Shown here piece after piece: positions 19,347 to 20,175 of a stretch of 64,000 nucleotides of DNA. A program made the translations under genes and the position numbers. The notes under the pieces are model-generated. The model was given only the letters and a program-made list of their open reading frames with translations, made no database searches and was not told the origin of the DNA. The DNA comes from Eledone cirrhosa. Lineage: Eukaryota. The DNA lies in contig OZ024742.1 of the NCBI GenBank assembly GCA_964016885.1, positions 298,592,001-298,656,000 on the forward strand, read 5' to 3'. Within the stretch, counting starts at the first letter, position 1; the number at the start of each line of letters is the position of its first letter.

Positions 19347-20175
19347 TACAAGTTAATATAAATTAATATATATGATAAACACTAATACAATCATATAAGT
19401 GTTTGTATTGTAAATGACCAAGTTAGCTAGAATCGAGACAGGCAAACTGTATTAATATAATTAGTATTTTTCAACCTAGCTAACTTGATCATTTACAATA
19501 CAAACACTTATATGATTGTATTAGTGTTTATCATATATATTAATTTATATTAACTTGTATTTCACGGCTCAGAAATATTTATTTCTTTGAGCTATTTAAT
19601 TGTAAAAGACTGTTTGAGTTTATAACTCTATATTTATAGTATTACGGCTCCTTTTGTTGAGCTAATTTTAGTCCCATAAAAACGGCTGTTATTTCTAGCA
19701 GCACGAGTATGCGGTAGCTAGACACTGAAAAACCATGTGCGTCGATCAGTCTTCTTAAATATTTTGAGGTGAAACATACCAATTTTCTGGGTACTTGCTG
19801 ATGAGAACTGAAGATGATATTTTTTCACTTTTTCAATTATCGAAACTTATTTGGATTTTGAAGTTTAAACTTATCTACGGAACGGGTTTGGATTTTGAAA
19901 TTTAAATTTGTCCAAGTACCACGGCTATTGCCAATATGGGTTTGTTTTTATTGATTTATTATTTTAAATCGAGACAGGCAAACTGTATTAATAGAATTAA
20001 TATTTTTCAATCTAGCTAACTTGGTCATTTACAATACGAACACTTATATGATTGTATTAGTGTTTATCATATATATTAATTTATATTAACTTGTATTTCA
20101 CGGCTCAGAAATTCTTTCTTTGAGCTATTTAATTGTAAAAGACTGTTTGAGTTTATAACTCTATATTTATAGTAT
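19347..20175 (+). mobile_element. Non-coding retrozyme-like element (~1.4 monomers of 536 nt) with inverted 5' arm
   Basis: Direct repeats 19431-19642 / 19967-20175; inverted arm 19347-19430 against 19476-19559; HHR in the unique part; (TA)n flanks; no ORF. Confidence 0.8.
19790..19920 (+). ncRNA. Type I hammerhead ribozyme with long stem III
   Basis: ggtacttg CTGATGA [imperfect stem II] GAAAC tt [24-bp helix 19849-19872 / 19884-19907] tt GTC caagtacc; perfect 8-bp stem I. Confidence 0.85.

Follow-up and report, generated by a model that had tools for sequence, protein, structure and literature searches.

Metazoan non-LTR retrozymes are described as non-coding tandem units of low GC content that carry one type I hammerhead each (PMC7229834; bioRxiv 10.64898/2026.07.22.740005), and they have been proposed to be non-autonomous derivatives of Penelope-like elements, PLEs (Cervera and de la Pena 2020, PMC7229834; Li, Clavereau and Pollet 2026). 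Their units span 51-972 bp in the more recent account, in which eight of nine Xenopus retrozymes showed no cleavage in vitro (Li, Clavereau and Pollet 2026, 10.64898/2026.07.22.740005), while the earlier account gives retrozyme RNAs of 170-400 nt (PMC7229834). As these texts describe it, helix III is reduced to 1-2 bp and a tetraloop. The hammerheads in the pLTRs of metazoan PLEs (PMC4209133; review PMC6765202) are also of type I, with an enlarged helix II, a U3-A8 core variant and a palindromic helix III, and they occur in tandem and inverted copies. In the description given there, helix III is minimal or absent and the ribozymes are thought to be dimeric: two hammerheads in tandem can pair through their palindromic helix III, and some monomer cleavage was obtained with an engineered extension that mimics the dimer (PMC4209133).

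A large helix III in a PLE context has been described in fungi and protists, and the hammerhead of the Serpula lacrymans PLE cleaves as a monomer (PMC4209133). These ribozymes belong to other kingdoms and to endonuclease-deficient telomeric PLEs; the comparison is one of description and not of helix length, and neither a duplication origin nor a wobble-rich helix figures in that description (PMC4209133). Insertions of EN+ PLEs, finally, are characterized by partial tandems, an inverted 5'-truncated copy, an optional tail from two RT start sites and an AT-rich or (TA)n target (10.1101/2021.04.23.441226; PMC11167929). The literature searched contains no animal hammerhead with a large helix III and no duplication origin for one; subscription papers and supplements lay beyond the search, and supplements may show a long helix III.

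The element analysed here lies in a 64,000-nt stretch of Eledone cirrhosa DNA (the window). With retrozymes it shares non-coding tandem units of low GC content with one type I hammerhead each; with metazoan PLE hammerheads, the type I topology, the enlarged helix II, the U3-A8 variant, tandem and inverted copies and, in its older forms, the palindromic helix III; and with EN+ PLEs, the insertion features listed above. Its sequence-level features suggest that it works as metazoan non-LTR retrozymes and PLE hammerheads do. Its unit of 536 bp falls within the range of retrozyme units and exceeds the length of the retrozyme RNAs. A difference lies in helix III. In place of 1-2 bp and a tetraloop the element has 2 bp followed by a helix of 23-24 bp, and the palindrome that in metazoan PLEs would serve two molecules is here twice duplicated into an intramolecular rod. 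As compared with EN+ PLEs as described, it has no ORF, and its tail is ~79 nt long rather than 30-40 nt.

The 536-bp element and its hammerhead

The element, with its partial unit and inverted copy, is embedded in (TA)n and comprises the following parts, in coordinates of the window:

19640..20175, + strand: full ~536-bp non-coding unit (period 536; no ORF of at least 100 aa inside)
19431..19642, + strand: partial upstream tandem unit, the 3' part of the repeat (97-98% to 19967-20175)
19346..19431, - strand: inverted copy, truncated at its 5' end (98.8% over 86 nt to the reverse complement of 20011-20096; its short 3' end abuts (TA)n)
20097..20175, + strand: optional 3' tail between two alternative ends, then (TA)n (two end points ~79 nt apart)

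The unit is a dispersed non-coding tandem repeat with one hammerhead per unit, as is characteristic of retrozymes, and the inverted 5'-truncated copy, the partial tandem and the optional tail are marks of a Penelope-like derivative. On several contigs hits were spaced 536-537 bp apart, with at most three units in tandem. (TA)n followed the short end in 26 of 73 contexts and the long end in 22 of 51; the element RNA is presumably copied into (TA)n by a Penelope-type RT/endonuclease. A 15-nt piece of this family's core occurred 102 times in the 3.0-Gb genome, as compared with 0 for the control. Patterns for related long-stem families gave 609 matches and a separate pattern for family C, which carries a 1-nt deletion, gave 744; the short-form pattern gave 168, and the single-unit pattern 152, a figure that partly includes the units of exact duplicates. 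Short pieces in sequencing runs of other organisms suggest that related families exist there, though they yielded no covariation between species that could be used.

Searches for an autonomous partner found no similarity between the 536-bp unit and the window's own PLE fragment, nor between three unit types and 16 copies of one PLE family, whose fetched stretches may lack the pLTR. A motif scan of loci L001-L270 revealed several PLE fragments near the element, most of the inspected ones being separated from it by (TA)n. The exception is L158:380-700, where a Penelope-like RT frame is fused to stem II of a family A copy, on the same strand and with no microsatellite between; this junction is possibly a template switch, and it was the PLE family of this locus that supplied the 16 copies compared. 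The window also holds a broken Penelope-like ORF at 51155-52612 (+), with RVT_1 at E=3e-5 and GIY-YIG at E=0.0014, both below the Pfam cut-offs, and a hammerhead-like motif at ~52810-52860 (+) in the 3' region of that ORF, which has no DNA similarity to the 536-bp unit. Two further repeats lie close to the element. One is a long head-to-head inverted repeat at 20803-21936, with arms of 326 and 252 nt that are 95-96% alike; by eye it has motifs in common with the PLE 3' region at 52600-52950, and its Rfam miRNA matches are sub-threshold. The other, a different repeat beside (TA)n at 20276-20620, was seen by eye in reverse orientation at two loci (L258, L146).

Within the full unit, a hammerhead spans 19790-19920:

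19790..19797, + strand: stem I 5' strand (pairs with 19913-19920; both strands co-vary between families)
19798..19804, + strand: catalytic core C3-A9, CUGAUGA (sequence; U3-A8 variant in families B and F)
19805..19841, + strand: stem-loop II, long, with a weak base (G10.1 at 19805 with C11.1 at 19841)
19842..19846, + strand: core G12-A13-A14-A15.1 and C15.2; start of duplicated unit 1 (sequence and conservation across rows)
19849..19872, + strand: stem III 5' arm, unit 1 of the duplicated quasi-palindrome (sequence drifts, pairs kept)
19873..19883, + strand: duplication junction (decayed inner GUC and GAAAC; predicted C(UACG)G tetraloop at 19875-19880)
19884..19907, + strand: stem III 3' arm, unit 2 (near-invariant across families; the G at 19884 private to this copy)
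19910..19912, + strand: GUC triplet; cleavage is predicted to follow 19912 (identical in all 32 rows)
19913..19920, + strand: stem I 3' strand (pairs with 19790-19797)

The motifs CUGANGA, GAAA and NUH stand in type I order and stem I closes the ends. A13 through C15.2 were invariant in all 32 rows of the alignment and G12 in at least 90%. Stem I occurred in six variants, all of them complementary between families, and the replacement of C3-G8 by U3-A8 in families B and F is a further covariation. No hammerhead was matched by Rfam, either over the whole window at gathering scores or over 18500-21500 at E<=10; the identity of the hammerhead rests on core motifs, fold and between-family covariation. 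The sequence-only reading of the locus as the third stem of a PLE-type hammerhead is supported.

Departures from the usual core are fixed in subfamilies (L061-L120, L191-L270): besides U3-A8 in families B and F, A or C replaces U4 in short and early forms, and within the youngest B subfamily 33 copies have U in place of A9. If such variants cleave, the known core is widened; if not, elements spread without cleavage. Over the whole window, the hammerhead core pattern gave 9 matches as against 0.97 expected. Four copies of one unrelated hammerhead-like motif with a short stem III were noted, at 9771-9793 (-), 12410-12432 (+), 24382-24404 (-) and 24421-24443 (+). At 63850-63891 (+) CUGAUGA, a long hairpin and GAAA follow one another, with no obvious type I closure, and the same sequence occurs in L241.

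Duplication and conserved pairing in stem III

Positions 19849-19872 pair with 19907-19884 in 24 unbroken pairs, comprising 14 A-U, 1 C-G and 9 G-U, which confirms the pair counts of the mismatch-free 24-bp helix reported earlier. When the bases of the 59-mer were shuffled 2000 times, the longest stem averaged 8.2 bp and never exceeded 18 bp, as against the 24 bp observed. The earlier claim of sense-strand specificity also holds: the + strand fold, at -43.9 kcal/mol (z -4.3; none of 200 shuffles equally good), contains the helix, and the - strand fold, at -21.9 kcal/mol (z -1.7; 15 of 200 equally good), lacks it. The terminal pair 19872:19884, the ninth G-U, is private to this copy; U-G was found there at one of 156 sites, and the pair is mismatched at 65 of 156. 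The conserved part of the helix is thus 23 bp. Between the long helix and the core-proximal 2 bp lies a 2x2 U-U internal loop (19847-48/19908-09).

The two arms form a 37-nt direct repeat (19841-19875 and 19878-19912, 80% identical), and the helix is therefore not the chance product of independent pairs. The history of the repeat was followed in 237 complete ribozymes from 192 sites, five of 242 records having been dropped as false. Three sizes of stem III coexist within this one element lineage: a short form, a near-perfect palindrome of 16 nt (27 copies); a single-unit hairpin of 30 nt (15 copies), which resembles a 14-nt doubling of the 16-nt palindrome; and a long form of 67 nt (195 copies). 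Some long copies carry an exact repeat of the 37-nt module, with GAAAC and GUC each present twice. A tree was built from sequence outside stem III, with the root assumed to lie on the short-stem family (support 1.0); it runs from single-unit forms to exact duplicates and from there to diverged duplicates, many inner nodes having support below 0.8. Forms of 35 nt also derive by deletion (L185, L199, L208), making some single forms secondary. Nearest-neighbour divergence is in agreement with this order, at 0.031-0.033 in short, single and exact-duplicate forms, about half that (0.014-0.016) in families A, B and F, and 0.023 in C, in a sample whose top-hit searches skew some families towards young copies.

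Doubling a quasi-palindrome makes unit 1 pair with unit 2, and each wobble is then seen twice. At the junction, the change of the inner GAAAC to GGAAC has closed a C(UNCG)G loop that most copies have kept; in the youngest B subfamily (35 copies) the loop-closing G is lost. We take the junction loop C(UACG)G of the present copy to belong to the UNCG tetraloop class.

Several lines of evidence indicate that pairing in the helix is likely to be conserved at the RNA level. Family majorities differ by nine fixed changes in arm 1, three each of A>G, G>A and T>C, and every one of them preserves the pair; of the fixed changes in arm 2, one keeps pairing and the other is a 1-nt deletion. In the 32-row alignment 97.1% of 896 cells pair, as against at most 63% in slid registers; two-sided changes account for 3 cells only, and related sequences can pass a shuffle control of this kind. 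Unit 1's own hairpin decays through A-C mismatches, to -1.3 to -3.3 kcal/mol in families A, B and D, and the long helix nonetheless retains P 0.98-1.00. Between families, 2 of 23 positions vary in arm 2 and 9 of 23 in arm 1 (p=0.035), although several search patterns fixed part of arm 2 and hide variation there. In pattern-free genomic contigs and reads the common interior variants, among the rows listed, nearly all fall in arm 1, and in the raw reads five of the six listed interior changes of arm 1 keep pairing. Pair types that occur as alternatives at four or more sites keep pairing in 16 of 18 cases, the others being one mismatch and one bulge (terminal pair excluded); the argument is based on the nine fixed changes and not on this count. 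The within-family contrast in arm 1 is weak, with 8 of 10 shared and 14 of 26 rare variants keeping pairing, and family C tolerates one bulge and a C-A mismatch.

We consider it probable (about 0.72) that stem III was lengthened by tandem duplication of a self-complementary stem containing G-U pairs, and that it has likely been kept paired by RNA-level selection, thereby supplying within one molecule a helix otherwise predicted to form between two ribozymes.

Selection might instead act on the wobbles themselves, as a means of avoiding perfect dsRNA, with less attack by Dicer and ADAR and easier passage of reverse transcriptase. Of the 12 haplotypes that occur at three or more sites, 10 do carry between 7 and 10 G-U pairs, despite the shifting positions of these pairs; no haplotype approaches full Watson-Crick pairing, and the three fixed A>G changes each add a wobble. 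Against this, six of the nine fixed changes in arm 1 remove a G-U, the largest family, C (744 pattern matches), has just 5-6, and 9 in 24 fits the 31% expected from base composition among allowed pairs if only mismatches are barred (p=0.52, on a rough null). Such selection therefore seems unlikely. RNA-level selection is likely for the pairing of the helix; the selection for wobbles as such that the sequence-only reading proposed is not demonstrated here. Under the duplication model favoured above, selection would act against mismatches, and the wobbles would be states that the helix can tolerate.

It is quite unlikely that the helix is a neutral by-product of slippage, hitchhiking with successful elements and accumulating transitions that in a G-U-rich stem are often harmless. 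The duplication is real, as the exact 37-nt duplicates attest, the families are set apart by few events, 29 of 60 random private changes keep pairing regardless, and the 5' ends of genomic copies carry no sign of cleavage. Nevertheless, the contrast between those 29 of 60 private changes and the nine of nine fixed ones (p=0.003) is difficult to reconcile with neutrality. In addition, no transversion has been fixed inside the helix among five family majorities, as compared with flanks that differ by 5-37%, and the junction became a tetraloop. The view of the helix as a by-product of local duplication, raised earlier as a possible refutation, thus holds for its origin and fails for its maintenance.

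Origin of the G-U pairs

The G-U pairs had also been attributed to A-to-I edits made by ADAR and fixed in the DNA through reverse transcription. This is very improbable. The exact-duplicate haplotype already has 10 G-U pairs, and seven of the nine wobbles of the present copy (19853, 19854, 19859, 19860, 19865, 19866 and 19871) were inherited from it, while three ancestral wobbles have been lost since the duplication. Both wobbles that arose after the duplication are A>G changes, as editing would have it: that at 19863 is fixed in all four derived families, and that at 19884 belongs to the present copy alone (1 of 156 sites). Moreover, two older wobbles are probably A>G changes of the single-unit stage, and A>G at 19861 has recurred in three families.

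The proposed check was to polarise substitutions across genomic copies. Private A>G changes per A were no more frequent in the helix (10/2570, 0.0039) than in the flanks (61/13464, 0.0045; p=0.75), and the same held when shared variants were included (24/2740, 0.0088, and 102/13476, 0.0076; p=0.55). G>A changes were about twice as frequent as A>G (0.018), and most A residues of the 3' arm never change. Within the helix A>G (24/2740) does exceed T>C (11/4232; p=0.0007), shared variants being counted and inherited subfamily variants thereby entering repeatedly. Selection for pairing predicts this same excess, since an A>G opposite U leaves the pair in place and a U>C opposite A destroys it. Together with the removal of wobbles by most fixed changes, these data leave room for at most a small ADAR contribution, with an upper 95% bound of ~1.3% per A. 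In the flanks of all long-stem families, read on the sense strand, A>G stood at 0.0076 and T>C at 0.0052, and G>A at 0.0158 and C>T at 0.0118; outside the helix too, transitions at purines were thus nominally commoner than those at pyrimidines.

DNA-level palindrome repair was rejected by reasoning as a source of the helix, since it would perfect a helix and not make G-T pairs.

Monomer and dimer architectures

Predicted energies fit an internalised dimer helix. Pairing between two molecules is predicted to gain -11.8 kcal/mol in the short form and -10.8 in the single-unit form, as compared with -2.9 kcal/mol in this copy; most long forms resemble this copy, family F (-11.9) and B2 (-6.1) being exceptions. 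A fold with an open core costs 4.1 kcal/mol here, where the 3' strand of stem II is an alternative pairing partner for CUGAUGA, and 1.6-4.0 kcal/mol in other long forms, as against 0 in short and older forms. Short and single forms already close stem III (with 6 and ~13 bp), so that the long helix is not needed for closure. On these models cleavage of the long-stem form as a monomer is plausible, and its efficiency would not be assured. The 5' ends of genomic copies showed no peak at the predicted cleavage site, whose bin held 2 of 316 ends, in a crude test on alignment ends that includes cross-family breaks and copies enriched for intact ribozymes, and that does not assess cleavage directly.

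The course of events may have been as follows. The 16-nt palindrome would first have been doubled by 14 nt. The whole module would then have been doubled by 37 nt, so that unit 1 paired with unit 2 and the wobbles were duplicated in mirror image. A single A>G at the junction would have closed the UNCG tetraloop and spoiled the inner GAAA. In the lineages still retrotransposing, spread would since have been limited to transitions that keep a pair, between A-U, G-U and G-C in both directions. A more far-reaching version, which we regard as tentative and on balance doubtful, is that one genome records a stepwise switch from dimer-prone to self-contained ribozymes, in which two duplications internalise the dimer helix, one substitution adds the UNCG cap, and the 3' arm, which adjoins the cleavage site, is frozen in sequence through recognition by a protein of the element cycle, for example a partner RT or ligase.

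Neither a new kind of system nor the entry of RNA edits into the genome is demonstrated by these data. They indicate that a long, wobble-rich helix can arise from duplication of a quasi-palindrome, with no requirement for editing, and that hammerheads of this kind escape the Rfam models. It is an open question why the hammerheads of animal retroelements are so constructed as to depend on a second copy; in vitro, most of them are poor cleavers. A matched set of natural ribozymes with stem III of 16, 30 and 67 nt on a near-identical scaffold is available in the present lineage, and the effects of dimer and monomer architecture on cleavage, circularisation and retrotransposition are therefore directly testable.
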